A DNA stretch of 64,000 bases from Alphaproteobacteria bacterium (GTDB lineage: Bacteria > Pseudomonadota > Alphaproteobacteria > GCA-2731375): contig CBDDBZ010000027.1 of assembly GCA_965225945.1 (NCBI GenBank), forward strand, positions 1 through 64,000. The letters are read 5' to 3'. Made by a program: the position numbers and the translations under genes. The stretch's first letter is position 1. Every line of letters begins with the position of its first letter. The notes under the pieces were generated by a model. It saw nothing but the letters and a program-made list of their open reading frames with translations, did no database searches and was not told the DNA's origin. Shown here one piece after another: positions 14,836 through 63,330 of this stretch.

Positions 14836-15174
14836 ATCCGCCGACTATTCGGGTAATTTTTCGCTATTTTACGGATTCGGCACCAAATTGGCAATACTCT
14901 TTCTCTAGAAATTTGCACTTCCATTCCCACATCTCGATTCGAACAACGAAGAACTCCATGGGGGTCCCGGTCTGTCAATCGGCGTTGAACATTGACCCCC
15001 ATCGGCGTGCAATGTTGACCCCTTTGGGGATGCACGGCGGAGGTCGTACAGGTAGTCCATAGGAGGGGCCCGCGCGCGGGCCGACGCGCCCACCACGCGG
15101 CTGGCGGCGGACCGCGCGTGGGAGGTTCCTGTGGGCCCACCTGGGCGACCGGGCGGCAGGTGGATCGGTTGCCT

Positions 15175-15903
15175 TTAGGACCGATTCTTGAAGCGCCAGG
15201 AGTCGTTTCCGGTCTCGATGATCTCGCAGTGGTGCGTCAGACGATCGAGGAGCGCGGTGGTCATCTTGGCGTCGCCGAAGACGGACGGCCATTCGCCGAA
15301 GGTCAGGTTGGTGGTGACGATGATCGAGGTGCGCTCGTAGAGCCGGCTGACGAGGTGGAACAGCAGCTGGCCTCCGGTTTGGGCGAAGGGCAGGTAGCCG
15401 AGCTCGTCGAGGATGACGAGGTCGCGCCGGGCCAGCTGATCGGCGAGCCGGCCCTGGCGGCCGGCGCGGGCTTCGGCCTCGAGCCGGTTGACCAGGTCGA
15501 CGACGTTGAAGAAGCGGCCCCGGGCGCCATCGCGGATGCAGGCCCGCGCGATGGCGACGGCGAGATGGCTCTTGCCGGTGCCGGTGCCGCCGATCAGCAC
15601 GGCGTTGCGCTGGTTGGCCAGGAAGCCGCCGACCGCCAACTCGCGGACCAGCGGCTCGTTGACCGGGGTGTCGGTGAAGTCGAAGTCGGCCAGCTCCTTG
15701 GCCAGCGGCAGCTTGGCGCCACTCATCTGGTACTTGATGGATCGCGCCTGCTTGTCGGCGATCTCGGCCTTCAACAGCTCGCCGATGATTCGCTGCATCG
15801 GATGCTGGCGCTTGAGGCCGTCGGCGAGCACCTCGTCGAACGCGTCGCGCATGCCGGCGAGCTTGAGTGCGGCCATCATCTCCAGGACCTCATGGCGCTC
15901 CAT
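15175..15903 (-). CDS. istB: IS21 helper ATPase
   Basis: Walker A GGTGTGKS, Walker [19 protein letters not shown]. Confidence 0.95.
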
Positions 15904-17401
15904 GGCCGACCCCCCTCAAGCGGTCGTAGCGGGTGCAATCGGCCACCGGCTCAAAGCGAAGACGCAGGTTCGCGGGCGTCGGGATCGGCGCCGTCTCGGA
16001 CGGCTGGCGCCGACGATTGAGGATGTTGAGCACGACGTCGGCGCTGCACACGCCGCCAGCGAGCGCCTCGGCACAGGCGGCCTCCACCGCCGCCAGCCCA
16101 TCCGCCAGCACGGCGGTGAGGATCTCGACCATCTGCCTGTCGCCGTCGTCGTGGCCGGCGAGCCGGACGCGCACGCGACCCAGGGCGCCGGGCAGCGCCC
16201 AGTCCTTGAACGGCGCGCCGTTACGAAGCGCACCGGGCTTCCTCGCCAGCACGGGCACGTAGTGCCACGGGTCATAGACGGTCTGGTCGCGGCCGAAGCG
16301 CCGGGCATGCTCGGCGACGATCTCGCCGTCCTGGCGGATGACGATGCGATCGGCGTAGGCATGGACCTCGACCGGACGGCCGACGGCGCGCGCCGCCACG
16401 CTGTACTTGTTGCTGTCGAAGCGCACCAGGCAGGTCTTCGACACCGACGCCGGGACCGCGTGGAAGCCGTCGAACGGCCCGCGATAGCCGACCAGGGACG
16501 GACGCTCGTCCTCGAACACCTGCCAGACAGTCCTGTCCTTGAACACCGGGTGGGGATGACGCCGGGCGTAGGCGACGCACTGGTCCAAGAGCCAGGCGTT
16601 GAGCTCGTCGTAGGTCTTGAAGCGCAGCCGCGGGGTGAAGAACCGACCGCGGATGATCCCGACCTGGTTCTCGACCTGCCCCTTCTCCCATCCCGCTCCC
16701 GGCGTGCATGCTGTCGGTTCGACCAGGTAGTGGCCACACATCTGCACGAAGCGCCGGTTGAACGCGCGCTCCTTGCCGATGAGGACGGTCTGCACCGCCG
16801 TCTTCATGTTGTCGTAGATGCCTCGCCGGCAGGCACCCTGGAACAGCCGGAATGCCCGGTCGTGGGCGTCGAACACCATCTCCTGGCTCTCGCGCGGATA
16901 AGCGCGGACGAAGAACATTCGGCTGTGGCACAGCCGGACGTGCGCGACCTTGACCTTGGTCGTCACCCCCGCCAGCACCACGTACTCGTGGCTCCAGTCG
17001 AACTGATAGGCCTCGCCCGGCGAGAACACCAACGGCACATAGGTCTGCGCCGTCGATGCCGAACGGCGCCACCGCCACGCCTTGGCGTAGCGCCGCACCG
17101 CGTCGTAGCCGCCGCCATAGCCCAGACCCTCGAGGGCTTCGGAGATCCGTAGCAGCGTCAGCCGCTCCCGCTTCGACTTGGTCTCGTTGGCCTCCAGCAT
17201 CCGCTCCAGCTCGGCCGTCCACGGCCCCAGCTTCGGCATCGGCTGGACCCGCCGGTCGTAGGTGAACGCCGTCGCCTGCGAACGGATCACCTTGCGCACC
17301 GTGTTGCCCGAGACCTTCACGTCCCGCACGATCTCCTTGATCGGCTTCCCCTTGACGAAATACTCCCGCCGGATCCGCGCTATCGTCTCCACGACCAACA
17401 T
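15890..17401 (-). CDS. istA: IS21 transposase
   Basis: QFDWS, IYDNMKT, EKGQVEN DDE motifs. Confidence 0.95.
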
Positions 17402-17522
17402 CCCCCACCACCTCGTCCGCCCAAAAACGAGGTGACTTGGACTAGCCAGGCTCAGGGGGTCAAATTTGGACGCCGATCACCCCTCAACAGGGGTCAACTT
17501 TGCACGCCGTTCCACACCGGTC

Positions 17523-21388: not shown

Positions 21389-22571
21389 TAGTGTCCTGAT
21401 CGATAAATTGATATGATTATGTCTCTATTTGTTTTCAGGAGGCGCGATTGATGGCGAGAGTGGCGGTGACGATCTCTTTGAGCGATGACGAGCGCGCCGA
21501 ATTGGAGGCGCTGTCTCGTCGTCGCAAGACGTCGCAGGGGCTTGCGCGGCGGGCTCGGATCGTCTTGGCGGCGGCGGAAGGGTTGGAGAACAAGGAGATC
21601 GCCGTTCGTCTCGAGGCGAGCGCGGACACCGTGGGCAAGTGGCGTCGCCGCTATGCGGCGGAGGGCCTCGACGGTCTGTACGACGAACCCCGCCCCGGCG
21701 CGCCGCGTCAAATCGGCGATGACGCCATCGCGGAAGCGGTCCGGCTGACGCTGGAAGAGACGCCGCCGGACGCGACCCATTGGAGCCTTCGCTCGATGGC
21801 GCGGGCGAGCGGCCACGCGCCCTCGACCATTCATCGCATTTGGCGGGCCTTCGGCTTGCAGCCGCATCGCTCGGAGACCTTCAAGCTGTCGAGCGATCCC
21901 TTCTTCGTGGAGAAGGTCCGCGACATCGTCGGTCTGTATTTGGCGCCGCCGGATCGTGCCCTGGTTCTCTGTGTCGACGAAAAGAGCCAGATCCAGGCCC
22001 TGGACCGTTCCCAGCCCCTCTTGCCGATGCGCCCCGGGCAGGCGGAGCGGCGCAGCCACGACTACAAGCGCCACGGCACGACCTCTCTCTTCGCGGCCCT
22101 CGACATCGCCACGGGAGAGGTCATCGGCAAATGTTTCCCGCGCCATCGGGCCCGAGAGTTCCGCAAATTCCTCGACCTCGTCGAGGCGAACGTCCCTGCT
22201 GATCTCGACATCCACATCGTCATGGACAACTACGGGACCCACAAGACCAAGGCGATCCGCGACTGGTTCGCCAAACGGCCGCGCTGGCAGGCCCATTTCA
22301 CACCCACCAGCGCCTCCTGGCTGAACCAGGTCGAGCGCTGGTTCGGGCTGCTGACCGACAAGCAGATCAGGCGCGGCGTCCATCGCTCCACCAAGGAGCT
22401 GGAGCGCACCATCCTCGACTACATCGACACGACAAACCAGAACCCCAAACCCTTCAAATGGACCAAATCCGCCGATGACATCCTCGGCGCCATCCAGCGC
22501 TTCTGCCTCCGAACAATCGAAACCGCTGAACAACAGGCGAAAATCATGCGAACTTCGGAATCGGGACCCTA
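21389..22571 (+). mobile_element. IS630-family insertion sequence
   Basis: CTAG at both ends (TA duplication); imperfect IRs TAGTGTCCTGAT / TAGGGTCCCGAT. Confidence 0.88.
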
Positions 22572-23778: not shown

Positions 23779-23808
23779 GGACTTGTGAGCTGAAACGAGG
23801 TGACGGCT

Positions 23809-24249
23809 ATGTCGAGCATGACCATCGGCAAGCTCGCTCGCGAAGCAGGCGTCGGCGTGGAGACGGTCCGCTTCTATGAGCGACGAGGGTTGATCGAGCA
23901 GCCTCCGAAACCCGTGGGCTCTGGATTTCGCCATTACCCGCAGGACGCAGTGGAGCGAATCCGCTTCATCCGGCGGGCTCAGAAGATTGGTTTTACGCTT
24001 CGCGAGATTGACGAGCTCCTATCACTGCGCGCCGACCCGGCTACCGACTCTGCCGATGTGCGCGAACGGGCCTTGGCCAAGCTGGCGGAGGTCAATCGCA
24101 AGATCGCACACCTCGCAGACATGCGTGGTGCTCTCGAGGACCTCATTGCGGCCTGTCCAGGTGGCGGGGCGCTCAGAACATGCTCGATCATGGAATCGCT
24201 CATAAGCGCCAATCCGAATAAATCGCGCGAGGGAAACGACGAGAATTGA
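23809..24249 (+). CDS. MerR-family metal-responsive regulator
   Basis: IGKLAREAGVGVETVRFYERRGL HTH; C-terminal CPGGGALRTC loop. Confidence 0.92.
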   Translation: MSSMTIGKLAREAGVGVETVRFYERRGLIEQPPKPVGSGFRHYPQDAVERIRFIRRAQKIGFTLREIDELLSLRADPATDSADVRERALAKLAEVNRKIAHLADMRGALEDLIAACPGGGALRTCSIMESLISANPNKSREGNDEN

Positions 24250-24274
24250 ACATGAAAACGCTACTGGTTCGAAC

Positions 24275-25029
24275 CTTGCCTATCCGGTTATCACCCACAC
24301 CCACTATATGTAGTGTGCACCCATTTTCCTGAGTAAAGCTCGGTGCAGGTCGAAGCGGAGATATCTCCGGCGATGCCGAGCAGGGACTCGGACGGCATTG
24401 TAGCGCCTTTTAGGCGACACTTTAGCGTGGTGGAAATCCTAATCATTGAGTCGGATTTGGCAAAACGCCACGTTGCATAAAGGACCGTCACTTCATTGAA
24501 ATTTATCTGAAATCGGAGGTGAACGACACCGATGGAATATTCCAGGAAATCAGAGCTTCATTGAATTGTAGGATTCGAGTGCCGGATTATTCACAAATAG
24601 CTCTGTGAACTGGTTTTCAAGTTCGCTCAATACGTCATATGAAGTAAACGGATTGAGGATCACGTTCTTGCGTGTCGCTTCGTCTTCGCTGCGACTCAAA
24701 ACGCGCAGGAGACTAACAGGCGCGGACGGGTTCTTCGCAACGATTCGTGCCAGCGCGTCGCTTTCTTCGACTAGTGCCGTCAATCGCTCAGACGATGTCG
24801 TTTCATCAGCAGCTTCCCGTCTGGCCGTGGGTTTCTTCGTTTTTCCCTTGGTCGCCACCGTTCCGTCCCCCGATGTTAAGTACGTGACGTGAATTAAACT
24901 CCGGTTCGGTTTTCAGAACAATCAAGAATTAGCCGGATCGCCTCCTCAATGCGCCTGCGCCGGCCCTTGCCTGCAGTCCAAGGAGACACACTACATATAG
25001 TGGGTGTGGGTGATAACCGGATAGGCAAG
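24275..25029 (-). mobile_element. 755-bp non-autonomous IS1595/ISSod11-type cassette, copy 1
   Basis: 43-bp perfect TIR CTTGCCTATCCGGTTATCACCCACACCCACTATATGTAGTGTG; 8-bp TSD GTTCGAAC; no intact transposase. Confidence 0.92.
24550..24858 (-). CDS. Passenger protein, leucine-rich-variant/HEAT-like repeat (102 aa)
   Basis: Repeats VAKNPSAPVSLLRVL / VILNPFTSYDVLSEL / FVNNPAL; GGGGGA RBS-like site before the GTG; identical in copy 2. Confidence 0.7.
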   Translation of the reverse strand: MATKGKTKKPTARREAADETTSSERLTALVEESDALARIVAKNPSAPVSLLRVLSRSEDEATRKNVILNPFTSYDVLSELENQFTELFVNNPALESYNSMKL

Positions 25030-25345
25030 GTTCGAACCTGGCTGGTCCTGATGTTGGCGGTGCTTGGCGCAACCACCGCCTACGCTGTCACTCAAACTTA
25101 CAGGCTTCGAGTTGACGGCCTGGCCTGCCCCTTCTGTGCCTATGGCATCGAAAAGCAACTGAGCCGCATTGAAGGTGTCAAGTCCATCGACACCGACATT
25201 CGCGGCGGCGTGGTGACGCTCACCATGACCGACGGCGCGACGCTCGACGAAGCGACCGCCCGGCGGGCTATCGAAGCCGCCGGCTTTACGCTGCGCGGTT
25301 TTGAGCCGGTGCAGGCGAGCGCAAAAGAGTAGGCACCAATAAGCC

Positions 25346-26275: not shown

Positions 26276-27075
26276 TGCTCCGGAAAAACATCATAAGAGG
26301 CCTCGTCGGGCTGGCGGTCGCCATTGCGGCTGTGCTTGCTGTTGGCTGGCTAGCTTTCGTGCCCTTGGCCAAGGAGCCCGAGTATGCGTTTCAGTTCGCA
26401 TGGGGCGAGAAGGGAAGCCAAGCCGGTCAATTTTCCGACCCGACAGGGATCGCCGTCACCGCCGATGAAGTGTTTGTTGCCGACGCTCGAAACGCACGCA
26501 TCCAGGTGTTCGATTTCGATGGCAACTTCAAACGACGATTCGGGGAGCGCGGAGAAGAACCCGGCCAGCTCGGCCGCCCCATGAATTTGGTCATCGTTGG
26601 GGATGAGATCTACGTTGCCGATTATTGGAACGACCGGGTCGAGATCTTCGGCCTTGACGGCACGCCGAGACGGACGATCGGGCGTCCTGGGAGGGGTCCC
26701 GGAGAATTCGACGCACCCGGTGGCATCGCCGTCGGCGACAACGGTGATCTGTTCATCGCGGATTTCTACAATCAGAGGGTTCAGCAGCTTCGCGCCGACG
26801 GCGGTTTCATTCGCCAGTGGGGCACGACGCGATCGGTCGGCATCTGGGCGGGAGAGTTCAATTACCCCACTGACGTGGCCTTGAGCCGAGACGGCACCCT
26901 GTACGTAGCCGACGGCTACAACGACCGGGTCCAGGCCTTTGCAAAGGATGGCCGCTATCTTCACAAATGGGGCGGCCCTTTCGCCATGAACATCTTCGGG
27001 CCGTTCAACGGCTGGTTCGCGACCACGACCAGCATCGCATTGGACAAGGACAGTAACGTCTTCGTTGCGGATTTC

Positions 27076-28354
27076 CACAGTACACGACTCGTTCATGCTG
27101 GCTTTGGCCTGGGCACCTGGACTGGTGGTTTTCCGGGGACGAGGAAACGAATCAGCTCAATGGCTTGACGCCTGTCGATAGGATTGACGAGCTGTCGCCT
27201 TATCCACTCGAAACCGTATCGGAAGATGGATTTTGCCATCCTTTTGTGGGTTTTGAGGCGGATCGGCTCGGCCTCGTGGAGCCAATCGCCGACTTTGTGC
27301 GCCCAGCAGAAGGTGATGGAAAGGACGGCGGTGAGCTTGGAGATGCGCTCCGGGTCGGTCATGTGGGTGTCTTCGAGGTTGAAGCCACGGGTTTTCAAGG
27401 CGGCGAAGAGGGTCTCGCTTTGCCAGCGCTGGGCGTAGATGGCCAAGGCCTCCTCGGGCGCGTCGTTGGTCACGACGATCAACAGTTCGCCGGTCTTGAG
27501 ATGGATGGCCTCCTCGCGGCGCGCGTCTGGTCACGACGAGACGGGCCGGTCCTGAGATGGAGCGCGGCGACGAAGACGGGCCTGGCCTTGGGTTTTCTGG
27601 CCTCCGAGAGGCGCCTGGCGTTGGAGAGGATGCGGCTTTCCCCGGGTTTGAGGTCGCGAAACAGCTCCCTCGCCTTGACCATGCGACCACGCGTGTTGGC
27701 GATCTTGATGTTGGATCGGATGCGGATGTGAAAGGGGATGGCCTTTTCCTGCAACCATGCCAGCCAGGCGTCGCCGATGAATTCCCGGTCGGCCAGGAGG
27801 CTGGCGATCTTGTCGACCCCGAAGAGCCGGAGGACGTGTTCGAGGATCGCGATCCGCTCCTTGGTATTGGAATTGCCCGCCTTGTCGAGCACCCGCCAGC
27901 ACACGGGAATGGCGATGGCGCGGTTGACGATGCCGATCATCAAGATGTTGACGTCGCGGCGACCCAGCCGCCAGTTGGTCCGGTCCATGGTCAGCCGCCA
28001 CGGCCCCGCCTGGAGCCCCATCATCGCGACCAGGAACTCGGCGAGGCGATCGTAATCGAAATCGACTTGCTCGAAAAACCGTTGCAGGCGCCGATAGTTG
28101 GAGCTGGATCGCGCGCGCCCCGGAAAGTGGCAGGCCAAGTGAGAGAGGTTCACCGTCCGGGCGACGAACACGCCGAAGACCAAGACGCAAAGGCTCTCCA
28201 GACGGCTCTTGCGAAAGGCGAAGCCGCATCGTAGCGTCTCACGCAGGGCGTTGATCGGGTTGTCTCGCATGATTTCCCTCTTGACTCGTCGTGGAGTGAA
28301 TCGGGAATCCTACAACCTTTTCAACGTCCTACGTAAATGCCGTCGTGTACCATG
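27076..28354 (-). mobile_element. IS4-family element (IS10-like)
   Basis: IRs CACAGTACACGAC / CATGGTACACGAC; 9-bp TSD GCGGATTTC. Confidence 0.88.
27093..28270 (-). pseudogene. IS4-family transposase, frameshifted by a noisy duplication of about 60 bp
   Basis: MDRTNW, LLADREFIG, Y..RW..E..F...K.RGFNLEDTH in two frames; imperfect tandem duplication at about 27438-27559. Confidence 0.85.
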
Positions 28355-28665
28355 GCGGATTTCTACAATCACCGGGTTCAGAAATTCGCTCCGGACGGAA
28401 CGTTTCTCGCGAGTTTTGGCGAGCATGGCAGCGGACCGGGTGCGTTCACCTATGCCGCCGCGGTGGCGGTCGCCGACGACGGCACTGTTTTCGTCGCCGA
28501 TTTTGGCAATAACCGCATCGAAAAGTGGCAACCGAGAAAATGATCCGCGTGTGAAACGCCCTCCAGCTCGCCGCGCCGCGGAGACCCTCGCGGCGCTGGT
28601 GGCGCGCGTCTTTGACAGCGAGAACCGAGCGGCGACATGATGGCGCCGGCGCGGCGGAGGCAGGC

Positions 28666-41330: not shown

Positions 41331-42360
41331 CCTGATTACGCACTTTACTCAGCCGGATTGATGTGGTACAAATCGTGAACATTTGGTGGTTTTTCTGGAG
41401 GTTCACAATGCCACGCAACAAGGTTCAGTTCCAGAAGGGGCTCAGCGAGCCGCGTTTTCGTGAGTTGTACGGTACCGAGGAGCAGTGTCGCGAGGCCCTG
41501 TTCCGCTGGCGCTGGCCGGAGGGCTTCTCCTGCCCCCGATGTGGCGCCACGCGCCATTGCGAGATCGCCGGGCGAAAACTCTACCAATGCGCCGCCTGCC
41601 GTCATCAAGTTTCGCTGACCGCCGGCACGCTCTTCCACGCGACCAAGCTGGCGCTGACCCTGTGGTTCTCGGCGATCTATCACATGACCCAATCGAAGAA
41701 AGGGATCTCCTCCCTCGAACTCGGCCGGCGGCTCGGCGTCACCCAGACCACGGCCTGGAAGATCAAGCAGAAACTGATGCAGTCCATGCTCGAGCGCGAT
41801 GCCAAATTGCCGCTCACCGGGCGGGTGGAGATGGACGATGCCTACCTCGGCGGCCGGCGTTCCGGGGCCAAGCGCGGCCGAGGCGCGCCGGGCAAGACGC
41901 CGTTCGTCGCCGCCGTCCAGACCACGAAGGAGGGCCAGCCCGTGCGCATCAAGCTCCGCCGCGTCAAGGGCTTCCGCAAGAGCGAGATCGCCAAGATGGC
42001 CAAGCGCGACCTGAGCCCGCTGGCGACGGTTGTCAGCGATGGGCTCGGCTGCTTCACCGCGGTCACCGCGTAAGGCTGTGCGCACCATCCGATACCCACC
42101 GGCTCCGGACCCGGGGCCGTCGCCGTGCCCGCCTTCAAATGGGTCAACACCACCCTCGGCAACCTCAAAAACACCCTGCGCGGTACCTACCATGCGATCC
42201 GACCCAAGCATGTGCCGCGCTATCTGGCGGCGTTCCAGTACCGATACAACCGCCGCTACCGGCTCGCCGACATGATCGAAGCCCTCGGCCGCGATGCCCT
42301 GCGCACGCCGCCCATGCCATATCGGCTCCTGAAGTTGGCTGAGGTTAGTGCGTAATCAGG
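41331..42360 (+). mobile_element. IS1595-family element (CCTGATT-type ends)
   Basis: IRs CCTGATTACGCACT...AGTGCGTAATCAGG; 8-bp TSD AAGATTTT. Confidence 0.93.
41408..42355 (+). pseudogene. IS1595 transposase with a premature stop
   Basis: Zn ribbon CPRC...CAAC, VEMDDAY, SDG; in-frame TAA at 42071-42073; the C-terminus (YRYNRRY) follows in the same frame. Confidence 0.88.
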
Positions 42361-42381
42361 AAGATTTTTGACAGGGAACTC

Positions 42382-42714
42382 ATGACCACGCCCGAGGGAT
42401 CGCCGCCGCAACCGTCACCGGGATTCGACAAGCGCGGCCTGCTCTTCGCCGTGATCTCGACCGGCTCCGCGGCGGTGAGCTGGTTCAGTTTGGACCTGGC
42501 CGCCTTCCTCGTGCCGATTGCCGTGCTGTTTTGCTTCGCCGGACTTTGGCGCTGCATCCGCGGCTACCGGGGCGCCAACCTGCCGATGGCGATCATCGCC
42601 ACCGCGATCACCGCCGCCGTCGTCTATTCCAGCTTTCAGGAGTTCGGCGGCGCCATCCTGAACGGCGAATGGGTGGAGCTCGCGCGCAAGCGCGGCGAGG
42701 CGTCGTCGTGTTGA
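42382..42714 (+). CDS. Small membrane protein
   Basis: Three hydrophobic segments; RBS and ATG contributed by the repeat end. Confidence 0.55.
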   Translation: MTTPEGSPPQPSPGFDKRGLLFAVISTGSAAVSWFSLDLAAFLVPIAVLFCFAGLWRCIRGYRGANLPMAIIATAITAAVVYSSFQEFGGAILNGEWVELARKRGEASSC

Positions 42715-44386: not shown

Positions 44387-45982
44387 GTAACTGCCCAGGT
44401 AGCTGATTTCGATGAGGCTGCGGATTGGGTCTCTGGGGGCAGATTTTGTGGGTTTGGGGCGCTGACGGCCTAGATTTCGTTTGACATAGGGTGGTTGGTC
44501 GATTCTAAGGATTCGATGGATAGGGATGTTCTTGCCTTTTTGTCGAAAGACGAGCTGATCGATGTGGTGCTGGCCCAAGGGTCGCGGCTCGCCGAGTTCG
44601 AACTCCGGCTTGGTGAACTCGAGCGCCGGCTTGGCCTGAACAGCACGAACAGCGGCAAGCCACCGTCGAGCGATGGATTGAACAAGCCACCGGCGGGTAA
44701 AAAGAAGCGCACCAGGAGCCTCCGTAAGAAATCGGCCCGCAAGCCGGGCGGGCAAAAGGGCCACAAGGGCGAGACCCTGCGCCAAGTCGCCGATCCCGAC
44801 GCCACCGTCGACCATTATCCCGAGACGTGCCAGTGGTGTGGTTCGGGATTGACGCCGGATATGGCTACCGGCCATGGGGCCCGCCAGGTTTTCGATCTAC
44901 CCGAGCCCCGGCCCCTGGTGGTCACGGAGCATCGGGCGCATCGCTGCCGTTGCGGGCATTGCGGCACGTACACTCGGGCTTCTTTTCCCGTCGCCATCAC
45001 CGGCCCGGTTCAATACGGCGCTCGGATCGGAGCCATGGTGGTCTACCTGTCGCACTACCAACTCCTGCCCGAGGACCGCCTGGCTGAATTGATGAAGGAT
45101 CTGTTCGGGGCGGAACTGTCTCCGGCGAGCCTCGCGCGGAGGGGCGGGAACAGCGCCGAGTCCGTCCAAGGCGTCGTCGATGTGATCCGCGAACTGGTGA
45201 AATCGGCGCCGGTCAAGCACATGGACGAGACCGGCTTGCGGATCGCCGGGCGGACCCAATGGTTGCACGTCGCCTCGACCGCGCGGTTGACCTTCTATCG
45301 GGTCTCGGAGCGACGCGGCAGCCTGCTCGGCGGAGTCGGCGGCATCGTCGTCCATGACCACTGGAAGCCGTACTTTACGATGGAGGGCGTACGGCACGCG
45401 CTGTGCAACGCCCATCACCTGCGCGAGTTGCAAGCCCTGATCGAGATCGAGAAGGAGGGCTGGGCACGCAAGATGCAGAGACTATTGCGCCGCGCCTGCC
45501 ACGCGGTAAATCTCGCCCGGGAGCGGGGCGTGGCGCTGAAACCAGGCCTCGTCGAGCGCTTCCGAGGGTGTTACGACGCGATCACGGCCGAGGGCATCGC
45601 CTTTCACGAGGCACAACCTCCTCTTGCGCCCAGATCGAGCAAGGCCAAGCGCCGGGGAAGCAAGCCGCGCCGCACCGGGCACAACCTTCTCCGGCGCCTT
45701 CAGACACACAAGGAAGACGCGCTGCGCTTCCTCATCAATTTCGCCGTGCCGTTCACCAACAATCAGGCCGAGCAGGACGGGCGCATGATGAAGGTCAAGC
45801 AGAAAATCTCCGGCGGCTTCCGCAGCCAGAAAGGCGCCGAAGACTTTGCCACCGTCCGCGGCTTCATCTCGACCGCCAGAAAACAGGGCCGGAACATCAT
45901 CCAGGCGCTCATGGAAAATCCCGAAACCCTGATCGAGCGTCTCCACGCCGCCTAAAAGGCCACCATGTACCTGGGCAGTTAC
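44387..45982 (+). mobile_element. IS66-family element (single-ORF, ISBst12-like)
   Basis: IRs GTAACTGCCCAGGTA / TACCTGGGCAGTTAC; 8-bp TSD AAATGTTT. Confidence 0.93.
44516..45955 (+). CDS. IS66 transposase
   Basis: NSGKPPSSD, HMDETG, LCNAHHLREL, FTNNQAEQDGR. Confidence 0.93.
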   Translation: MDRDVLAFLSKDELIDVVLAQGSRLAEFELRLGELERRLGLNSTNSGKPPSSDGLNKPPAGKKKRTRSLRKKSARKPGGQKGHKGETLRQVADPDATVDHYPETCQWCGSGLTPDMATGHGARQVFDLPEPRPLVVTEHRAHRCRCGHCGTYTRASFPVAITGPVQYGARIGAMVVYLSHYQLLPEDRLAELMKDLFGAELSPASLARRGGNSAESVQGVVDVIRELVKSAPVKHMDETGLRIAGRTQWLHVASTARLTFYRVSERRGSLLGGVGGIVVHDHWKPYFTMEGVRHALCNAHHLRELQALIEIEKEGWARKMQRLLRRACHAVNLARERGVALKPGLVERFRGCYDAITAEGIAFHEAQPPLAPRSSKAKRRGSKPRRTGHNLLRRLQTHKEDALRFLINFAVPFTNNQAEQDGRMMKVKQKISGGFRSQKGAEDFATVRGFISTARKQGRNIIQALMENPETLIERLHAA

Positions 45983-46333
45983 AAATGTTTTATGATGACG
46001 GTCTTGCCATCAACGCCACTCAAAGCACTTTCATACAAAGCCTTTACCACCGCCTTCGGCTTGTACTCCGCAGCCTGAACTTCCAGGCCGGACGCCGCGC
46101 CGAACGACAATACGCCTGCTAGCGCAAGAGCGTATCCGAGCTTGGTCGATTTCATGGTGTTCTCCCCTATCACCTGTCGAGATTTTGCCACATGAACACG
46201 GAATGCCCACAAGGCTCCCCGAGCACCGACGCACAGTATAAAACGAGATTCCCCAGATGACCACCGGTTCCGACCATCAAAATTGGCCATATTTGGCTTT
46301 CCATGGCGATTTGGAGGACAGGATCGAAGATTC

Positions 46334-47088
46334 CTTGCCTATCCGGTTATCACCCACACCCACTATATGTAGTGTGTCTCCTTGGACTGCAGGCAAGGGC
46401 CGGCGCAGGCGCATTGAGGAGGCGATCCGGCTAATTCTTGATTGTTCTGAAAACCGAACCGGAGTTTAATTCACGTCACGTACTTAACATCGGGGGACGG
46501 AACGGTGGCGACCAAGGGAAAAACGAAGAAACCCACGGCCAGACGGGAAGCTGCTGATGAAACGACATCGTCTGAGCGATTGACGGCACTAGTCGAAGAA
46601 AGCGACGCGCTGGCACGAATCGTTGCGAAGAACCCGTCCGCGCCTGTTAGTCTCCTGCGCGTTTTGAGTCGCAGCGAAGACGAAGCGACACGCAAGAACG
46701 TGATCCTCAATCCGTTTACTTCATATGACGTATTGAGCGAACTTGAAAACCAGTTCACAGAGCTATTTGTGAATAATCCGGCACTCGAATCCTACAATTC
46801 AATGAAGCTCTGATTTCCTGGAATATTCCATCGGTGTCGTTCACCTCCGATTTCAGATAAATTTCAATGAAGTGACGGTCCTTTATGCAACGTGGCGTTT
46901 TGCCAAATCCGACTCAATGATTAGGATTTCCACCACGCTAAAGTGTCGCCTAAAAGGCGCTACAATGCCGTCCGAGTCCCTGCTCGGCATCGCCGGAGAT
47001 ATCTCCGCTTCGACCTGCACCGAGCTTTACTCAGGAAAATGGGTGCACACTACATATAGTGGGTGTGGGTGATAACCGGATAGGTAAG
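46334..47088 (+). mobile_element. 755-bp non-autonomous IS1595/ISSod11-type cassette, copy 2
   Basis: Same TIRs (one C>T near the right tip); 8-bp TSD GAAGATTC at 46326-46333 and 47089-47096. Confidence 0.92.
46505..46813 (+). CDS. Passenger LRV/HEAT-like protein (identical to 24550-24858)
   Basis: Identical 102-aa translation. Confidence 0.7.
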   Translation: MATKGKTKKPTARREAADETTSSERLTALVEESDALARIVAKNPSAPVSLLRVLSRSEDEATRKNVILNPFTSYDVLSELENQFTELFVNNPALESYNSMKL

Positions 47089-47094
47089 GAAGAT

Positions 47095-48765
47095 TCAAGC
47101 CCCGCCGTCCGTCGAGCCGAGAACCCACTCCCTCAGCACGTCCTTGCGGACCTTACCCATGCTGTTGAGCGGAAACTCGCTCACCATCACGATGCGCGAC
47201 GGCAATTTGTAGGCCGCGATTCTCGGCTTCAGATAGGCGCGGATCTCGTCCTCGCTCAGGCCCTCGCCCGCCTTGGCGATGACGCAGGCGCAGACCACCT
47301 CGCCATAATAGGCGTCGGGGAGACCGATCACCGAGACCTCGGAGATCCGGGGCTCGGCCACCAGGATCTCCTCGATCTCCCTCGGCGATACGTTGGCGCC
47401 GCCGCGAATGATGACGTCCTTAGCCCGACCGACGATGCGAAAGATCCCCGCCTCGTCCACCGTCGCGAGATCGCCCGAGCGGAACCATCCCTCCCCGTCC
47501 CATGACGAGGCATTGGCCTCCGCGTTATTCAGGTAGCCGGCGCACATGCCCGCGCTCTTGATCACCAGCTCGCCGACCTCGCCCGCCGCGACGGGCGAGC
47601 CGTCGGCGTCGACGACGCGCGCCTCCACCCCCCCTATGGTCCGCCCGATCGTGCCCGCGACGTCGTCCGGGTCGTCCTCGGGCGACCACCAGAAGCCCAT
47701 GCCGAATTCGTTCATGCCGAAGGCATCGATGAAGGCGGGGGTGAATTTCCGCCGCAGCTCCCGAATCGAGGCAATCGGGAAGCTCGCGCCCGCGGACAAC
47801 GCCAGGCGAAGCGAGTCCCGTCGCGTGCGCTCCAACGCCGGGCTGTTGGTGAGCGCGATGAAGGCCGTGGGCGTGCCGGCGAGGTAGGTGACGGCCTCCC
47901 GCTCGATCAGCTCCAGGGCCCGGGTGGCGGAGAAACGGTCCATCAGCACCGTGGTGAGGCCGGCGGCGAGCGGCAGTTGCAGCCCCATGATCACACCAAA
48001 ATTGGTGGAGAACGGCACATAGGCCAGCGCCACGTCGTCGGCGTCGAGCTTGAAATCTTGGACGACCATCCTCCCTGAGTGCGCCAGCGTATTGTTGGTG
48101 TGCATGATCGCCTTCGCCGCGCCCGTGGTGCCGGAGGTGAAGACGATGCGGGCGACCTGGTCCGGGTCCGGCCGCCACGCCGCCAAGGTTTCGGGCGTGA
48201 TTCGGTCTTCGATTCGCTCGGCCAGCATCGCCTCCAAGGACAGGCAGCCGTCCGGCGCCGCGCCGCGCGCGACGATGACGTGGGCCAAGGCCGGAAGCTC
48301 GGGCCCGAGGGCGCGAAGGCAGGCGGGATAGTCGAAGTCCTGGAACTCGCAGGGGATGATCGCCGCCTTCGCGGGCGCGACGGCGAAGCCATGGGCCATC
48401 TCGGCGCCGCGCCAGTCCGCGCCGAGTTGAACCACCACGGCGCCCGCGAGCTGGATGGCGTGGTAACAGACGACATACTCGAACCAGTTGGGCAATTGCA
48501 GGGCGACGACATCGCCCGGCTCGATCCCCAACTCGGCCAGATGCAGCGCGAGGCGCCGGCTCAGGCGATAGAGCGCGGCCCAGGAGAGGCGCGTCTCGCC
48601 ATCGACGATCGCGATTCGCTCTGGGCGTTCCTCGGCGTGTTTCGCCAACAGGTCGCCCGCCACCTCGTCGCGCCAGAAGCCTTTCCCGTAGGACTGCTCG
48701 ATGCGCAAAGCGTCGAGGCGCCCCTCTACCGCCCGAATTGGCACGGCCCGAATTCGCAAACCCAT
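47095..48765 (-). CDS. AMP-binding acyl-CoA ligase (cyclohexanecarboxylate-CoA-ligase-like)
   Basis: FTSGTTGAAK, FGMNE, SGDLA, GRAKDVIIRGG. Confidence 0.9.
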   Translation of the reverse strand: MGLRIRAVPIRAVEGRLDALRIEQSYGKGFWRDEVAGDLLAKHAEERPERIAIVDGETRLSWAALYRLSRRLALHLAELGIEPGDVVALQLPNWFEYVVCYHAIQLAGAVVVQLGADWRGAEMAHGFAVAPAKAAIIPCEFQDFDYPACLRALGPELPALAHVIVARGAAPDGCLSLEAMLAERIEDRITPETLAAWRPDPDQVARIVFTSGTTGAAKAIMHTNNTLAHSGRMVVQDFKLDADDVALAYVPFSTNFGVIMGLQLPLAAGLTTVLMDRFSATRALELIEREAVTYLAGTPTAFIALTNSPALERTRRDSLRLALSAGASFPIASIRELRRKFTPAFIDAFGMNEFGMGFWWSPEDDPDDVAGTIGRTIGGVEARVVDADGSPVAAGEVGELVIKSAGMCAGYLNNAEANASSWDGEGWFRSGDLATVDEAGIFRIVGRAKDVIIRGGANVSPREIEEILVAEPRISEVSVIGLPDAYYGEVVCACVIAKAGEGLSEDEIRAYLKPRIAAYKLPSRIVMVSEFPLNSMGKVRKDVLREWVLGSTDGGA

Positions 48766-57157: not shown

Positions 57158-57564
57158 CGAGTGCCGGATTATTCACAAATAGCCTGTATCGGCGTGCGGA
57201 TTGAGGAACGTTCTTGCGTGTCGCTTCGTCTTCGCTGCGACTCAAAACGCGCAGGAGACCAGGCGCGGTTCGCAACGATTCGTGCCAGCGCGTCGCTTTC
57301 TTCGACTAGTGCCGTCAATCGCTCAGACGATGTCGTTTCATCAGCAGCTTCCCGTCTGGCCGTGGGTTTCTTCGTTTTTCCCTTGGTCGCCACCGTTCCG
57401 TCCCCCGATGTTAAGTACGTGACATGAATTAAACTCCGGTTCGGTTTTCAGAACAATCAAGAATTAGCCGGATCGCCTCCTCAATGCGCCTGCGCCGGCC
57501 CTTGCCTGCAGTCCAAGGAGACACACTACATATAGTGGGTGTGGGTGATAACCGGATAGGCAAG
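57158..57564 (-). mobile_element. 755-bp cassette, copy 3 (one intact end, other side scrambled), inside the IS21 terminal repeat
   Basis: Intact TIR ends at 57564, followed by GAACATTG of the IS21 end; 57137-57270 is a mosaic of cassette and IS21-end fragments. Confidence 0.8.
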
Positions 57565-57753
57565 GAACATTGACCCCCTATCGGCGTGCAATGTTGACCC
57601 CTTTGGGGATGCACGGCGGAGGTCGTACAGGTAGTCCATAGGAGGGGCCCGCGCGCGGGCCGACGCGCCCACCACGCGGCTGGCGGCGGACCGCGCGTGG
57701 GAGGTTCCTGTGGGCCCACCTGGGCGACCGGGCGGCAGGTGGATCGGTTGCCT

Positions 57754-58482
57754 TTAGGACCGATTCTTGAAGCGCCAGGAGTCGTTTCCGGTCTCGATGA
57801 TCTCGCAGTGGTGCGTCAGACGATCGAGGAGCGCGGTGGTCATCTTGGCGTCGCCGAAGACGGACGGCCATTCGCCGAAGGTCAGGTTGGTGGTGACGAT
57901 GATCGAGGTGCGCTCGTAGAGCCGGCTGACGAGGTGGAACAGCAGCTGGCCTCCGGTTTGGGCGAAGGGCAGGTAGCCGAGCTCGTCGAGGATGACGAGG
58001 TCGCGCCGGGCCAGCTGATCGGCGAGCCGGCCCTGGCGGCCGGCGCGGGCTTCGGCCTCGAGCCGGTTGACCAGGTCGACGACGTTGAAGAAGCGGCCCC
58101 GGGCGCCATCGCGGATGCAGGCCCGCGCGATGGCGACGGCGAGATGGCTCTTGCCGGTGCCGGTGCCGCCGATCAGCACGGCGTTGCGCTGGTTGGCCAG
58201 GAAGCCGCCGACCGCCAACTCGCGGACCAGCGGCTCGTTGACCGGGGTGTCGGTGAAGTCGAAGTCGGCCAGCTCCTTGGCCAGCGGCAGCTTGGCGCCA
58301 CTCATCTGGTACTTGATGGATCGCGCCTGCTTGTCGGCGATCTCGGCCTTCAACAGCTCGCCGATGATTCGCTGCATCGGATGCTGGCGCTTGAGGCCGT
58401 CGGCGAGCACCTCGTCGAACGCGTCGCGCATGCCGGCGAGCTTGAGTGCGGCCATCATCTCCAGGACCTCATGGCGCTCCAT
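57754..58482 (-). CDS. istB: IS21 helper ATPase (identical to 15175-15903)
   Basis: Identical translation. Confidence 0.95.
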
Positions 58483-59397
58483 GGCCGACCCCCCTCAAGC
58501 GGTCGTAGCGGGTGCAATCGGCCACCGGCTCAAAGCGAAGACGCAGGTTCGCGGGCGTCGGGATCGGCGCCGTCTCGGACGGCTGGCGCCGACGATTGAG
58601 GATGTTGAGCACGACGTCGGCGCTGCACACGCCGCCAGCGAGCGCCTCGGCACAGGCGGCCTCCACCGCCGCCAGCCCATCCGCCAGCACGGCGGTGAGG
58701 ATCTCGACCATCTGCCTGTCGCCGTCGTCGTGGCCGGCGAGCCGGACGCGCACGCGACCCAGGGCGCCGGGCAGCGCCCAGTCCTTGAACGGCGCGCCGT
58801 TACGAAGCGCACCGGGCTTCCTCGCCAGCACGGGCACGTAGTGCCACGGGTCATAGACGGTCTGGTCGCGGCCGAAGCGCCGGGCATGCTCGGCGACGAT
58901 CTCGCCGTCCTGGCGGATGACGATGCGATCGGCGTAGGCATGGACCTCGACCGGACGGCCGACGGCGCGCGCCGCCACGCTGTACTTGTTGCTGTCTGTC
59001 GGTGGCGATGAAAAACCGCGCTTAGATGGTGATTTCAGCGACATCGGGCATCGTGGCGCTGTAGCTGCGTGGTTTGCAGGCGGGAGTTGGCTCGGCGCAG
59101 CGGTGGGTAAGTAGCCCGCCGCGGCGACCGCCAAGAGTCTGGCGGCGGCGGGCTGCTTATCCACCGCGGGCGGGCGTCTCGATTCCTGTTTTGGCTGGCT
59201 GGCGGCGGCGGTTCCGCGGACCTGACAAGGGGAGCCGCGGGAGTACACTCGGGCCGCTGAGAACGATGCGGCGCCGGCCCCGTTTGCTTGCTGGCAACGA
59301 CCGGCACCGCACCCCCCGAGCCATGCAAGGCACGACCCATATGCGCAGTATCGTGCGGGTTTGGGCGTGGGTCCACCCCGTTCTCATCGGCTGCGCG

Positions 59398-59838
59398 ATG
59401 AAGAACACCGCCCGCCTGTTCAACTGCGCCTCGTGCCATCAACAGGTGGTTCTCTGCCGGCACTGCGACCACGGCAACATCTACTGTTCACGGAGCTGCA
59501 GCGATCGGGTGCGCCGGCGATCGCAGCGCCATGCCGGGCAGCGCTACCAGAACAGCCGGCGGGGCCGTCACAAGCATGCTGAGCGCCAGCGGCGCTATCG
59601 CGAACGCCGGCGGCGCCGGACGCCGGTGAATCGGCGCCGCGGGCAGGAAGTGACGCATCACCCTTTGACCGCCGCGCGGCGGCGTCCTGTTGTGGTGCGG
59701 ACGCCGGCAGGGCGTCCCGGAACACGGCCCTTCGGGCACGAGCGGCCCGCCAGGGTCTTCCGCTGCGATCGCTGCGGCCGGTTCTGCGGGCAGGCGGTCT
59801 ATCCGGGGCTGCGCCCGACGGGAAAGGGGGTGAGATGA
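59398..59838 (+). CDS. Cys-rich, Arg-rich putative Zn-finger accessory protein
   Basis: CASC..CRHC..YCSRSC and C-terminal CDRC; stop overlaps the istA start (ATGA). Confidence 0.7.
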
Positions 59839-61340
59839 CCATCGACAAGGAGACCCGCGCGGAGATCCTGCGCCTGTATCACGTCGAGAAGTGGACGGTC
59901 GGCACGATCACACGCCAGCTCGGCGTGCATCGCTACACCGTCGAGCGCCTCCTCACCGCGGCCGGCGAGCCCCGGGACGCGAGGTCGCCCAGGCCGTCGA
60001 TGATCGATCCATACGTGCCGTTCATCGCCGAGACGCTGGCATCCTGGCCGACGCTGCCCGCCAGCCGGCTCTACCAGATGGTGCGCGAACGCGGCTATCC
60101 GGGCGGCGGCGACCACTTCCGTCATCTGCTCAGCCACTTCAGGCCCAGGCCCGTGGCCGAGGCCTATCTGCGCCTCAAGACCCTTCCCGGCGAGCAGGCC
60201 CAGGTCGACTGGGGACACTTCGGCAAGGTGACGATCGGCCGCGCGGAGCGCCGCCTGATGGGCTTCGTGATGGTTCTCAGCTACTCGCGGCGGATCTTCC
60301 TGCGCTTCTACCTCGACGCCGGGATGAGCAACTTCCTGCGCGGCCATGTCGAAGCCTTCGAGGCGTGGCAGGGCGTGCCCCGCGAGCTCTGGTACGACAA
60401 CCTGAAGAGCGTCGTGCTGGAGCGCCGCGGCGCCGCCATCCGGTTCAATCCCCGGATCCTCGACCTCGCCGGCCACTACCACTTCCTGCCCAAGCCCGTC
60501 GCGGTCGCGCGCGGCAACGAGAAGGGGCGCGTGGAGCGGGCGATTCGCTATGTCCGGACCAGCTTCTTCGCCGCCCGCCGGTGGCGCGATATCGACGATC
60601 TCAACGCCCAGGCCCTGGCCTGGTGCCACGGCATCGCCGCCGACCGCCCCTGGCCCGAAGACCGCTCGATCACCGTGCGCGAGGCCTTCGAGCGGGAACG
60701 CGGCTCTCTCATCGCGCTGCCCGGCGATCCCTTCCCCGACCACGACCGGGTCGAGGTCGCCATCGGCAAGACCCCCTACGCCCGCTTCGATCTCAACGAT
60801 TACAGCGTGCCGCACACCCATGTGCGGCGCACCCTCGTCGTGGTCGCGACGCTCGACGAGGTGCGCATCCTCGACGGTGTGGACGTCATCGCCAGCCATC
60901 CGCGCAGCTTCGACAAGGCGGCCCGCATCGAGAACCCCGAGCACATCGCCGAGCTGGTCAGGCGCAAGAGCCATGCCCGCCGCCTTCGCGGCCAGGACCG
61001 GCTGGTCCAGGCCGCGCCCAACAGCGAGCGCCTGCTCGCCGAGGCCGCCCAGCGCGGCGGCTATATAGGCGCCACCGTCGCCGCCCTGTTGCGCCTCCTC
61101 GACGCCTACGGCGCCGCCGAGCTCGAGGCGGCCATCGACGAGGCCCTGAAGCGGGACGTTCCCCATCCCAACGCCGTGCGCCTGAGCCTGACCCGGCGGC
61201 GCGAGCTGCGGCACCAACCCCCGCCCATCCCCGTCGAACTGCCCGGCGATCCGAGAGTGCGCGACATCACTGTCCGCGATCACGACCTCGTCGGATACGA
61301 CGGGCTGGCCGGCGAACCCGAGGAGGACAGCGAGCAATGA
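59835..61340 (+). CDS. istA: IS21 transposase (type B)
   Basis: QVDWG, WYDNLKS, EKGRVER. Confidence 0.93.
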
Positions 61341-62125
61341 ACGATACCCTCATGGGCCGTGCCCGGGCGCTCGGCCTGCACGGCCTCGCCGCCCACTGGG
61401 GCGAGGTCGCCGGGCATGACTGGCCCGCTGCGCTGGTCGCCTGGGAAGAGGAGGAACGGCGAAGCCGCAGCCTCAAGCGCCGCCTCGGCGACGCCCGCCT
61501 CGGACAGTTCAAGCCGCTCGCCGACTTCGACTGGGCATGGCCGCGCCGCTGCGACCGCATGGCCGTCGAGGATCTCATGAGCCTCGAGTTCCTCAACGAG
61601 GCCGCCAACGTCGTCCTGGTCGGCCCAAACGGCGTCGGCAAGTCGACCATCGCCGCCAATATCGCCCACCGCGCCGTCCTCGAGGGCCACACCGTGCGCT
61701 TCGCCACCGCGGCCAGCATGCTCGGCGAGCTCGCCGCCCTCGACAGCGACACCCTGCTTCAGCGCAGGCTGCGCTTCTACGCCCGCCAGCACCTGCTGGT
61801 GATCGACGAGGTCGGATACCTGTCCTACAGCAACCGCCATGCCGATCTGCTGTTCAACATCGTCTCCAGCCGCAGCCAGCAGAACTCCACCATAATCACC
61901 ACCAACCGGCCCTTCGCCGAGTGGGGTGAGGCCTTCCCCAACGCCGCCTGCCTCGTCGCCCTGGTCGACCGCCTCGTCCACAACGCCGAGATCATCGCCA
62001 TCGACGCCGAGTCCTGGCGCCGCAAGGAGGCCGAGGAACGCCAGAAGCAGCGCAGCGCCGAGCGCCGCCGGCGGCGAGCCGGCAAGGCCGGCGCGCAGGA
62101 CCGCGGGGAACCGCCGCCGGCGTAG
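61337..62125 (+). CDS. istB: IS21 helper ATPase (type B)
   Basis: [23 protein letters not shown]. Confidence 0.93.
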
Positions 62126-62127
62126 CC

Positions 62128-63330
62128 ATGGATGGTCCCCGCCTCTGGGACCGGCGGGTGCGGGCCGATTTTCCTGAGGCCCTGCGAGGCTATCCCCTCG
62201 AAGACGTCGTCCGCCGCCTTCGGCTACCGCCGCAATCCCACCGATGCCGCGCGCTGGAGGCGTCCCGGACTCAAAACGCGCAGGAGACTAACAGGCGCGG
62301 ACGGGTTCTTCGCAACGATTCGTGCCAGCGCGTCGCTTTCTTCGACTAGTGCCGTCAATCGCTCAGACGATGTCGTTTCATCAGCAGCTTCCCGTCTGGC
62401 CGTGGGTTTCTTCGTTCCCTTGGTCGCCACCGTTCCGTCCCCCGATGTTAAGTACGTGACGTGAATTAAACTCCGGTTCGGTTTTCAGAACAATCAAGAA
62501 TTAGCCGGATCGCCTCCTCAATGCGCCTGCGCCGGCCCTTGCCTGCAGTCCAAGGAGACACACTACATATAGTGGGTGTGGGTGATAACCGGATAGGCAA
62601 GCTACGAACATCTGCGCGGCGAGGGCGGGGGCGGAGCGATCGAATCCATGCCTGCCGGTGCACCGTGCCCGAGGCCCTCGGCTTCTTCTCGGAACTGCCG
62701 TGCCGTGACCGGTTCCCGGCCGATCGCCACCCGAAGCCGCCGTGCCCGGACCGCCACTGGCCCGCCATCCAGAGCTACCTCGTCGAGCAGCGCGGCCTCG
62801 CGGATGTGCTCGTCGCCCTGTGCCGCGACCTCGGCTTGCTCTACGCCGACCGCCACGGCAACGCCGTGTTCGTCCGCCGAAACGCGGCCGGCGAGGCTCT
62901 CGGCGCCGAGATCGTCCCTGCCGCGGCGCCACGCCGCCTCGCGCCGACCGGCGCCGCCGCGCGCGGCGGCTTCTGGATGTCGTGGGAACCCGACTGGCCG
63001 AACTCCGTCATCCTCGCCAAGAACGCAATCGACGCCCTGTCGGTCCTCTCCCTCCACCTCGTCCCGGCCGGGCGCAAGGGATGCGCCGTGGTCTCAACCG
63101 GCGGCGCCACCGCAAGCCTCCCCGAATGGATCGAGGCCTGGAACCCCGGCCGGATCTTCTGCGCCTACGACGCCACCCGCCAGGGCGATGACGCCGCGGC
63201 ACGGCTCATCCGAAACGACAGCAGGGTCGTCCGCCTGCGCCCTGCCCTCGACGGCCTGGACTGGAACGACATGCTCATGCGCGACCGCGCCGGCGAACCG
63301 CTCCAGATCGATGACCGGCCCCTCGACTGA
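62128..63330 (+). pseudogene. DUF3991/TOPRIM-like (primase-related) passenger, interrupted by cassette copy 4
   Basis: GGGGAID, YLVEQRGL, LLYADRHGNAVF, AIDALS, CAYDA...GD, DWND motifs; several frameshifts. Confidence 0.7.
62268..62601 (-). mobile_element. 755-bp cassette, copy 4 (truncated, one TIR)
   Basis: 334 bp matching copy 1 up to the TIR end; followed by CTACGAAC. Confidence 0.85.

Follow-up and report, generated by a model that had tools for sequence, protein, structure and literature searches.

The first mobile insertion cassette (MIC) was reportedly MIC231 of Bacillus cereus, an element with the ends of the insertion sequence (IS) IS231 that is said to have been described by De Palmenaer and co-workers in 2004. 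MICs, together with IS-derived MITEs (miniature inverted-repeat transposable elements) that are mobilised in trans, are dealt with in sections of two publications (PMC3129680, PMC3281130), and a section of the former mentions IS copies with passenger genes, citing Siguier et al. (2009). For the IS1595 family, a section of PMC8101967 lists as features a DDE domain, an N-terminal zinc ribbon and, usually, 8-bp target-site duplications (TSDs), and monophyly of the ISSod11 group was not recovered in the tree given there. Here, we describe a 755-bp gene-carrying cassette found in a window of 64,000 nucleotides (the whole stretch of DNA analysed, C27:1-64000, i.e., contig CBDDBZ010000027.1) from an alphaproteobacterial genome (assembly GCA_965225945.1, hereafter G000; 6.27 Mb in 39 contigs, estimated 96.55% complete). 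We show that the cassette has transposed in a very recent burst, and we consider it very probable that it is a non-autonomous IS1595-family transposon, i.e., a MIC, most likely moved by the transposase of a resident IS that resembles ISAcr1, the nearest named IS by NCBI annotation (IS1595 family, Acidiphilium cryptum JF-5 plasmids).

Copy 1 (24275-25029) is bounded by perfect 43-bp terminal inverted repeats (TIRs) with GTTCGAAC on either side, and a second 755-bp copy lies inverted with GAAGATTC on either side (Table 1). The two differ by a single base change, G4A, which falls inside a terminal repeat, so that the repeats of copy 2 match at 42 of 43 positions. Read in the direction of the passenger gene, the cassette consists of a 43-bp end, 128 bp of upstream sequence, a 309-bp open reading frame (ORF), a spacer, a transposase remnant of about 200 bp and the other 43-bp end. 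ORFs of at least 30 aa within it include the 102-aa passenger ORF, a 66-aa remnant and antisense frames; no transposase ORF is present in the cassette, only the decayed 66-aa C-terminal stump, which holds no transposase domain and has no Pfam match. At 51.0% GC, the cassette lies below the related IS (61.7%) and the genome (66.3%), and no Rfam family matched within 24200-25100. A sequence-only reading of the window had described the two full copies with their coordinates, opposite orientations, 43-bp repeats and different TSDs, two damaged copies ending at 57564 and 62601, an interior more AT-rich than the host and the lack of a transposase ORF, and each of these observations was borne out.

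Across its own genome, a blastn search with the cassette returned 305 rows, including 71 matches of at least 700 bp and 47 shorter ones. By count from the table, the shorter matches comprise 22 to the 125-bp ends of a related IS (77% identity) and 25 to fragments or older relatives of the cassette. The four copies in 40 kb noticed from the sequence alone are real and understate this abundance, and the exact 43-nt cassette end occurs 136 times in the genome, which places the element far beyond chance. Among 61 end-to-end copies at ≥93% identity, 47 are flanked by perfect 8-bp duplications, and all 47 sites are distinct. The pre-insertion sites of these 47 copies were rebuilt and matched at ≥98% identity with at least 30 nt on each side; as the sequence-only reading had anticipated in proposing a search for empty sites, 16 of them have an uninterrupted paralogue elsewhere in the genome (matching over the full 240 nt for 10), in which the 8 bp are present as a single copy. 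The 16 cassettes concerned sit within other multi-copy elements whose remaining copies are intact. Empty sites of both window copies were also sought in two genomes of the same genus, where no syntenic site was found, the flanks having diverged to short pieces at 66-80% identity. Overall, the distinct duplications and the empty sites show that the cassette has undergone real transposition.

The cassette has spread recently, as the near-identity of the first copies had suggested: 22 of the 61 copies show no difference from the window copy, itself the consensus, and most of the remainder carry 1-3 changes. We therefore show a very recent burst. A few variants are common to two or three copies, two of them located in the terminal repeat, which means that more than one source copy was active. 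Older relatives at 80-88% identity and with insertions (C24:106414-107275, C28:77653-78519, C29:77331-78160, C9:37498-37865 and C36:141299-141866) point to what may have been an earlier wave of the cassette family; the passenger frames are broken in those that were translated (C24 and C28).

The origin of the cassette is recorded in its first 126 bases: they agree at 77% with the right end of an IS1595-family IS that resides in the genome, and the last codons of this IS survive in them in decayed form; the same bases match both ends of elements of 1121, 1631 and 1658 bp (77%). Dissection of these elements yields an ancestral IS form of 1105 bp with the ends CTTGCCTATCCGGTTTACACCC... (left) and CTTGCCTATCCGGTTAACGCCC... 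(right). This resident IS encodes a 339-aa protein with DDE_Tnp_IS1595 (PF12762, E = 3.6e-37) and Zn_ribbon_IS1595 (PF12760, E = 3.5e-13) domains, which scores 192.6 bits against NCBIfam transpos_IS1595 (NF033547; cut-off 75). Its C-terminus reads ...SLLGIAGDTSAPTYAELYSGEWRHPTCSGHGR and that of the cassette remnant ...SLLGIAGDISASTCTELYSGKWVHTTYSGCG, with 22 of 33 residues identical, and in tblastn its residues 279-338 align to 24294-24530 at 39% and to every cassette copy. Two ideas of the sequence-only reading, that the tail of the cassette resembles an IS1595 transposase C-terminus and that the element is an IS whose transposase was replaced by a passenger gene, are both upheld by these matches. 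Its proposed search for an autonomous IS1595 element with the same 43-bp ends succeeded in part, in that the 1105-bp IS has the same terminal 15 bases as the cassette. Furthermore, of the 31 positions common to the two ends of the IS, 30 are preserved in the cassette end, which also has 30 of the 32 outermost bases of the IS left end. A terminal-motif search of the genome returned the 136 exact cassette ends along with 21 right and 8 left ends of the resident IS, and no further element with CTTGCCTATCCGG ends. By tblastn, the remaining IS1595-family transposases of the genome, which belong to further subfamilies at 26-48% identity, are at most 48% identical to that of this candidate helper. 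One more IS1595-family transposase gene is located in the window itself (41444-42259; 27% identical to the helper, within a repeat of approximately 31-33 copies).

The resident IS also occurs in rearranged forms. Those of 1631 and 1658 bp have their right end duplicated in inverted orientation, as an additional 513 bp beyond the original left end, such that both working ends are right ends, and have one internal junction in common (CAACGAAC), while the 1121-bp form is a deletion derivative of the longer ones and has no normal start codon. The rearranged forms (C14:57696-59326 (L068), C1:44070, C15:7573, C33:95821, C38:177697, C19:59701 and C34:188810) have moved, since each has its own 8-bp duplication.

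Cassette and IS choose the same kind of target. The 47 cassette sites give the palindromic consensus W-N-[G-W-W-Y-R-W-W-C]-N-W, with 48% GC compared with 66% in the genome, and the IS, which likewise makes 8-bp duplications (perfect in 18 of 43 full-length copies), gives the same G-W-W-Y-R-W-W-C from a matrix of 86 flanking 8-mers. The 43 IS copies comprise 33 of 40 fetched from the related genome G029 and 10 from G000, and six of the own-genome rows report the internal junction of the long forms and not the true flank. At C26:1253-3136 (L067), a single 8-bp target is present three times in the tandem GTTCGATC-cassette-GTTCGATC-IS-GTTCGATC, indicating that whichever element came second inserted at precisely the target already taken by the other; a comparable 8-bp spacing is seen at C32:60935/60944.

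Some cassette match was present in 7 of 40 relatives, as fragments or an 89% copy in G002, G017 and G029 and as IS-like ends only in the others, and G001 had neither cassette nor IS. The passenger gene was found in 3 of 401 genomes of the class (an even sample of 400 plus G000). In G218, a 4-contig assembly from another family, 755-bp cassettes occur at 98.8-99.6% identity, with an own 8-bp duplication at 5 of 5 loci examined, together with 47 transposase matches, mostly at 99% among the matches listed. G029, of the same family as G218, has 164 transposase matches but cassette fragments only. The transposase of the IS in these two genomes is 99-100% identical to that of the resident helper, which indicates very recent horizontal spread of the IS and independent bursts, and the near-identical IS and cassette in two bacterial families show recent horizontal spread. 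In soil and marine Alphaproteobacteria metagenome-assembled genomes (MAGs), we found a short cassette of 523-547 bp that is made up of the ends and the gene and has no transposase remnant. An IS whose transposase is 81% identical is present in two of the short-cassette genomes, and in one of them the terminal trinucleotide of the IS is that of its cassette.

Close homologues of the passenger gene had a cassette-type end beside the gene at 10 of 10 loci. Four distant homologues (three from Cyanobacteria and one from an unclassified MAG) had no cassette-type end, and the match lies within longer open frames. In public data, the cassette is present in 20 runs from 13 studies, some of them labelled sponge metagenome, including six RNA libraries. 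The contigs of four runs all show C-to-G at 24406 and A-to-G at 24642, which correspond to C132G and A368G of a small subfamily in G000; no contig from any of these runs covers the flanks of the 24275 site, which is uninformative.

The passenger protein matches Pfam LRV_2 (PF25591) with 34.1 bits (cut-off 27) and scores 19.4 bits against Pfam LRV (PF01816), under the cut-off of 21.6; some database members of its family do carry LRV. An AlphaFold2 model has a mean predicted local distance difference test (pLDDT) score of 81.5 and seven short helices, with residues 1-6 under 50 and the first twenty averaging approximately 50; several residues of this low-pLDDT N-terminal region are nearly invariant. 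As modelled, the protein comprises a single helical-repeat module of LRV type, preceded by a basic N-terminal tail that is predicted to be disordered. Foldseek against the PDB gave nothing at E 1e-3 or better (weak HEAT/ARM-like rows only), a profile search against PDB sequences gave 0 matches, and a language-model atlas returned LRV clusters only. A large protein database yielded 234 clusters at E 1e-3 or better, and among the 120 clusters listed most members are exactly 102 aa long on contigs of approximately 0.5-1.5 kb, the 102-aa length being held down to 74% identity. A profile built from 35 members found 4678 representative proteins, the best being LRV/HEAT repeat proteins of 500-2200 aa in which the match is usually N-terminal. 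The gene thus looks like a captured N-terminal module of such large repeat proteins, and judged from its family its product would most likely be a protein-binding adaptor. Within G000, 83 of 83 profile matches fall inside cassette copies and none elsewhere. A literature search on LRV_2 returned Leishmania RNA virus papers only, and a complex prediction for the transposase and the LRV protein gave no support for an interaction, a result that counts neither way.

Longer homologues (12 proteins, five of which were examined along with two further cluster members) were read as accidental fusions. P0121 (422 aa) is not a transposase-plus-LRV ancestor: it joins the LRV protein to a frame that runs antisense to the transposase gene of a different IS1595 element. 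The end of this IS meets the cassette 42 nt upstream of the passenger start, and we read P0121 as a nested insertion called as a fusion.

The 102-aa frame is intact in 53 of the 61 end-to-end copies, with an identical protein in 45, and is broken or changed in length in 8. In a comparison with four intact orthologues from cassettes of other genomes, the ratio of nonsynonymous to synonymous substitution rates (dN/dS) was 0.17-0.34 in 10 of 10 pairs at dS of 0.13-1.3; by this measure the gene is under purifying selection between lineages. Excluded were L031 and L047-L049 as truncated or interrupted, L045 for a stop within its frame, and the decayed copies of G000. The start position is kept in relatives, as GTG here and ATG or TTG elsewhere. 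In the upstream region, a Shine-Dalgarno-like block (GGGGA/GGAGA) and a TTTAATT/TTCAATT block, a candidate -10 element, are kept across five aligned cassettes, and a promoter is presumed to lie there. Upstream of the gene, a sigma-70 consensus scan gave no promoter; its sole match lies inside the remnant at chance level. The gene is putatively expressed.

That the copies are assembly artefacts or segmental duplications, and not products of transposition, might be suspected from the 14 of 61 copies without matching duplications and from the 20% of the genome that is repeated. The probability of this explanation is close to nil in view of the 47 different perfect 8-bp duplications in unique flanks, the empty paralogous sites that carry the 8 bp once, and the same element with new duplications in the 4-contig assembly of G218; the exceptions themselves include pairs with swapped flanks (e.g., two on C24), as recombination between copies predicts. 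The cassette has thus kept both transposase-recognised ends, while of the transposase gene it retains just a dead stump, a small passenger gene with its own presumed ribosome-binding site having replaced the remainder. As for how it moves, we propose that a DDE transposase made elsewhere in the cell would bind the 43-bp ends and insert the cassette at GWWYRWWC-like sites, duplicating 8 bp, and its source would most likely be the resident 1105-bp ISAcr1-like IS. We infer that this transposase acts in trans because the two elements have the same target consensus, have a tandem target in common and co-occur in G218. It is instead conceivable that the mover is a different transposase, that of the exact parent IS, lost or missing from the 39-contig assembly, and that the ISAcr1-like IS is a bystander, as could be argued from a remnant and first 126 bases just 77% identical to the resident IS, from a cassette end nearer to the right end of ISAcr1 (39 of 43 positions) than to the resident IS (35 of 43), and from a genome completeness that is estimated at 96.55%. 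We regard this alternative as improbable, given that the terminal-motif search gave only cassette ends and resident IS ends, that tblastn gave no closer transposase (others ≤48% identical), that the target consensus is the same with one 8-bp target used by both in tandem, and that the pair of cassette and IS recurs at approximately 99% in G218.

Several points do weigh against the resident ISAcr1-like IS as helper, or against the wider account of the cassette. Compared with either end of the resident IS, the cassette end shows 8 differences in 43 positions, which makes recognition by the resident transposase no more than plausible, and a search of this assembly turned up no IS whose 43-bp ends are exactly those of the cassette, which makes the helper a close relative of the cassette's parent and not demonstrably the parent itself. 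G029 holds the IS without full cassettes, indicating that the IS alone does not guarantee cassette expansion, and in G017, whose 360-contig assembly has pieces of the cassette at the ends of contigs, a search for the transposase gave nothing at E 1e-60 or better. The ends CTTGCCTATC and the IS length of 1105 bp agree with the ISSod11 group of IS1595, which we take to be defined by nnnGCnTATC ends and a length of approximately 1.0-1.1 kb; the ISSod11-group label, which rests on these criteria, is tentative. On the side of the passenger gene, the cassette interior is covered in RNA-library contigs from three studies, which may contain DNA and so are no proof of transcription, and within the recent burst three ORF variants common to at least two copies appear to be amino-acid changing, such that selection is visible only between lineages.

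It is very unlikely that the 102-aa frame is a functionless relic, intact merely because the burst is recent. The 22 identical copies do leave too little time for decay, and a broken frame or a changed length is already seen in 8 of 61 copies; yet the dN/dS values between lineages, the length kept down to 74% identity among the 120 clusters listed, the conserved start position (ATG, GTG or TTG), the Pfam match over the cut-off and the retention of exactly this gene in the shrunken cassettes all speak for function. Whom the protein serves is less clear-cut, and we lean only slightly towards a role serving the element over one serving the host. Host-beneficial cargo, for instance a repeat protein for life inside an animal host, with the cassette as a mere vehicle and selection acting at the level of the host, would be compatible with the purifying selection, with the occurrence of the element in runs labelled sponge metagenome, and with the typical use of helical-repeat proteins as protein-binding modules (Pfam LRV/HEAT matches in the large relatives). 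We consider such a role somewhat unlikely, as host benefit does not explain about 60 intact copies, the gene stands beside cassette-type ends at 10 of 10 related loci examined and never alone, the older diverged copies in G000 have decayed frames, the basic and modelled disordered N-terminus has no obvious signal peptide by eye (no predictor was run), and only 3 of 401 sampled genomes of the class have the gene. Alternatively, and with considerable doubt on our part, the LRV protein could be the cassette's own tool, which might aid the cassette in seizing or exploiting the transposase that the autonomous IS makes, or dampen a host response to it. This idea would explain why the gene is found only inside such cassettes, survives the shrinkage of the cassette to a bare minimum, is conserved over its full length including the predicted disordered region, and travels with an IS across host families. 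If true, the cassette would be a semi-autonomous parasite of an IS whose gene is kept by selection among element lineages.

Table 1 Features of the cassette at copy 1 and of its other copies in the window.
Feature	Position	Strand	Basis or remark
8-bp target-site duplication GTTCGAAC, left	24267..24274		Perfect fit to the palindromic target consensus GWWYRWWC
43-bp terminal inverted repeat, remnant-side end	24275..24317	+	136 exact 43-mers genome-wide; keeps 30/31 positions common to the two ends of the resident IS
Decayed C-terminal remnant of an IS1595-family transposase gene	24291..24530	-	tblastn and residue identity; 66-aa open frame at 24291-24491
Passenger gene, predicted 102-aa LRV_2 alpha-solenoid protein, GTG start	24550..24858	-	Pfam PF25591, dN/dS, AlphaFold2
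Passenger gene upstream region	24859..24986	-	Alignment of five cassettes
43-bp terminal inverted repeat, end upstream of passenger gene	24987..25029	-	Sequence
8-bp target-site duplication GTTCGAAC, right	25030..25037		Sequence
Second full 755-bp copy, inverted	46334..47088	-	GAAGATTC at 46326-46333 and 47089-47096; passenger gene 46505-46813, + strand
Damaged copy, cassette bases 375-755, 96.3%	57197..57564	+	Right end intact; a 1432-bp element (~46 copies) begins at 57565
Damaged copy, cassette bases 419-755, 99.1%	62268..62601	+	Inside a repeat of ~21 copies

Copy 1 begins 25 bp past the stop of a MerR-family regulator gene (23800-24249) and lies just upstream of a heavy-metal-associated (HMA) domain gene, whose open frame is extended back into the cassette (24949-25332); the insertion may conceivably affect metal-responsive regulation. 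The genome is rich in repeats, with 20.1% of its bases in non-self matches of ≥95% identity and ≥300 bp and 13.9% having at least 10 other copies. The window alone holds at least 8 other element families of 21-56 copies each, with repeats at 1-1500, 14987-17500, 21500-22500, 27000-28500, 41500-42500, 44500-46000, 57565-58996 and 59000-63900.

Gene-carrying non-autonomous elements are rarely annotated, and this cassette adds approximately 60 intact copies of one small gene to a single genome. In public data, 234 protein clusters correspond to its relatives, most of them on contigs that do not exceed the element in length, so that the element probably breaks up many metagenome assemblies. A helper IS, a cassette, defined ends and a defined target motif together provide a natural system for asking how far transposase recognition tolerates end changes, and the same system bears on why a hitchhiking element keeps a protein gene under selection.

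A full-text literature search, with ISfinder and paper supplements outside its scope, found no description of this element, and likewise no paper mentioning ISAcr1. The transposase of ISAcr1 is 82% identical to that of the helper, and ISAcr1 itself is 1080 bp long with the 8-bp duplication ATATATTG; its terminal 15 bases (CTTGCCTATCCGGTT) are those of the cassette, whose end matches the ISAcr1 right end at 39 of 43 positions. Whereas ISAcr1 is autonomous and has no LRV gene, the cassette retains a dead transposase stump only. The resident helper has the DDE_Tnp_IS1595 domain, zinc ribbon and 8-bp duplications by which the IS1595 family is recognised. Passenger genes are also carried by the 'transporter IS' of that family, in which the boundary of IS and transposon is known to be blurred; those elements keep their transposase, while the cassette has lost it. 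Compared with the LRV_2 and LRV repeat proteins (PF25591, PF01816), the passenger is a single stand-alone module of 102 aa and in its own genome occurs in the cassette only.

Like MITEs, the cassette is non-autonomous, with IS-derived ends, a high copy number and near-identical copies, MITEs being mobilised in trans according to sections of PMC3129680 and PMC3281130. MITEs are small, non-coding and usually shorter, whereas the cassette is 755 bp long (523-547 bp in other hosts) and always carries a protein gene that is under selection. It resembles MICs in having IS-type inverted repeats, no transposase and a passenger gene, MICs being moved in trans by a cognate transposase (sections of PMC3129680 and PMC3281130). 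With its IS-type ends, no transposase of its own, a 102-aa gene and 8-bp duplications together with the evidence of transposition, the cassette has what is expected of a MIC, on the assumption that the LRV_2 gene is unrelated to transposition. It differs from MIC231, in which the cargo varies and the copy number is low, in belonging to the IS1595 family and not to IS4/IS231, in reaching a MITE-like copy number of about 70, and in keeping one cargo gene with its ends across many lineages. The MIC concept, ISs with passenger genes, and the groups and hallmarks of the IS1595 family are thus known already; what is unusual in this cassette is 1) its MITE-like copy number, 2) one cargo gene held under selection with its ends across lineages, and 3) its recent spread across families along with a helper IS.

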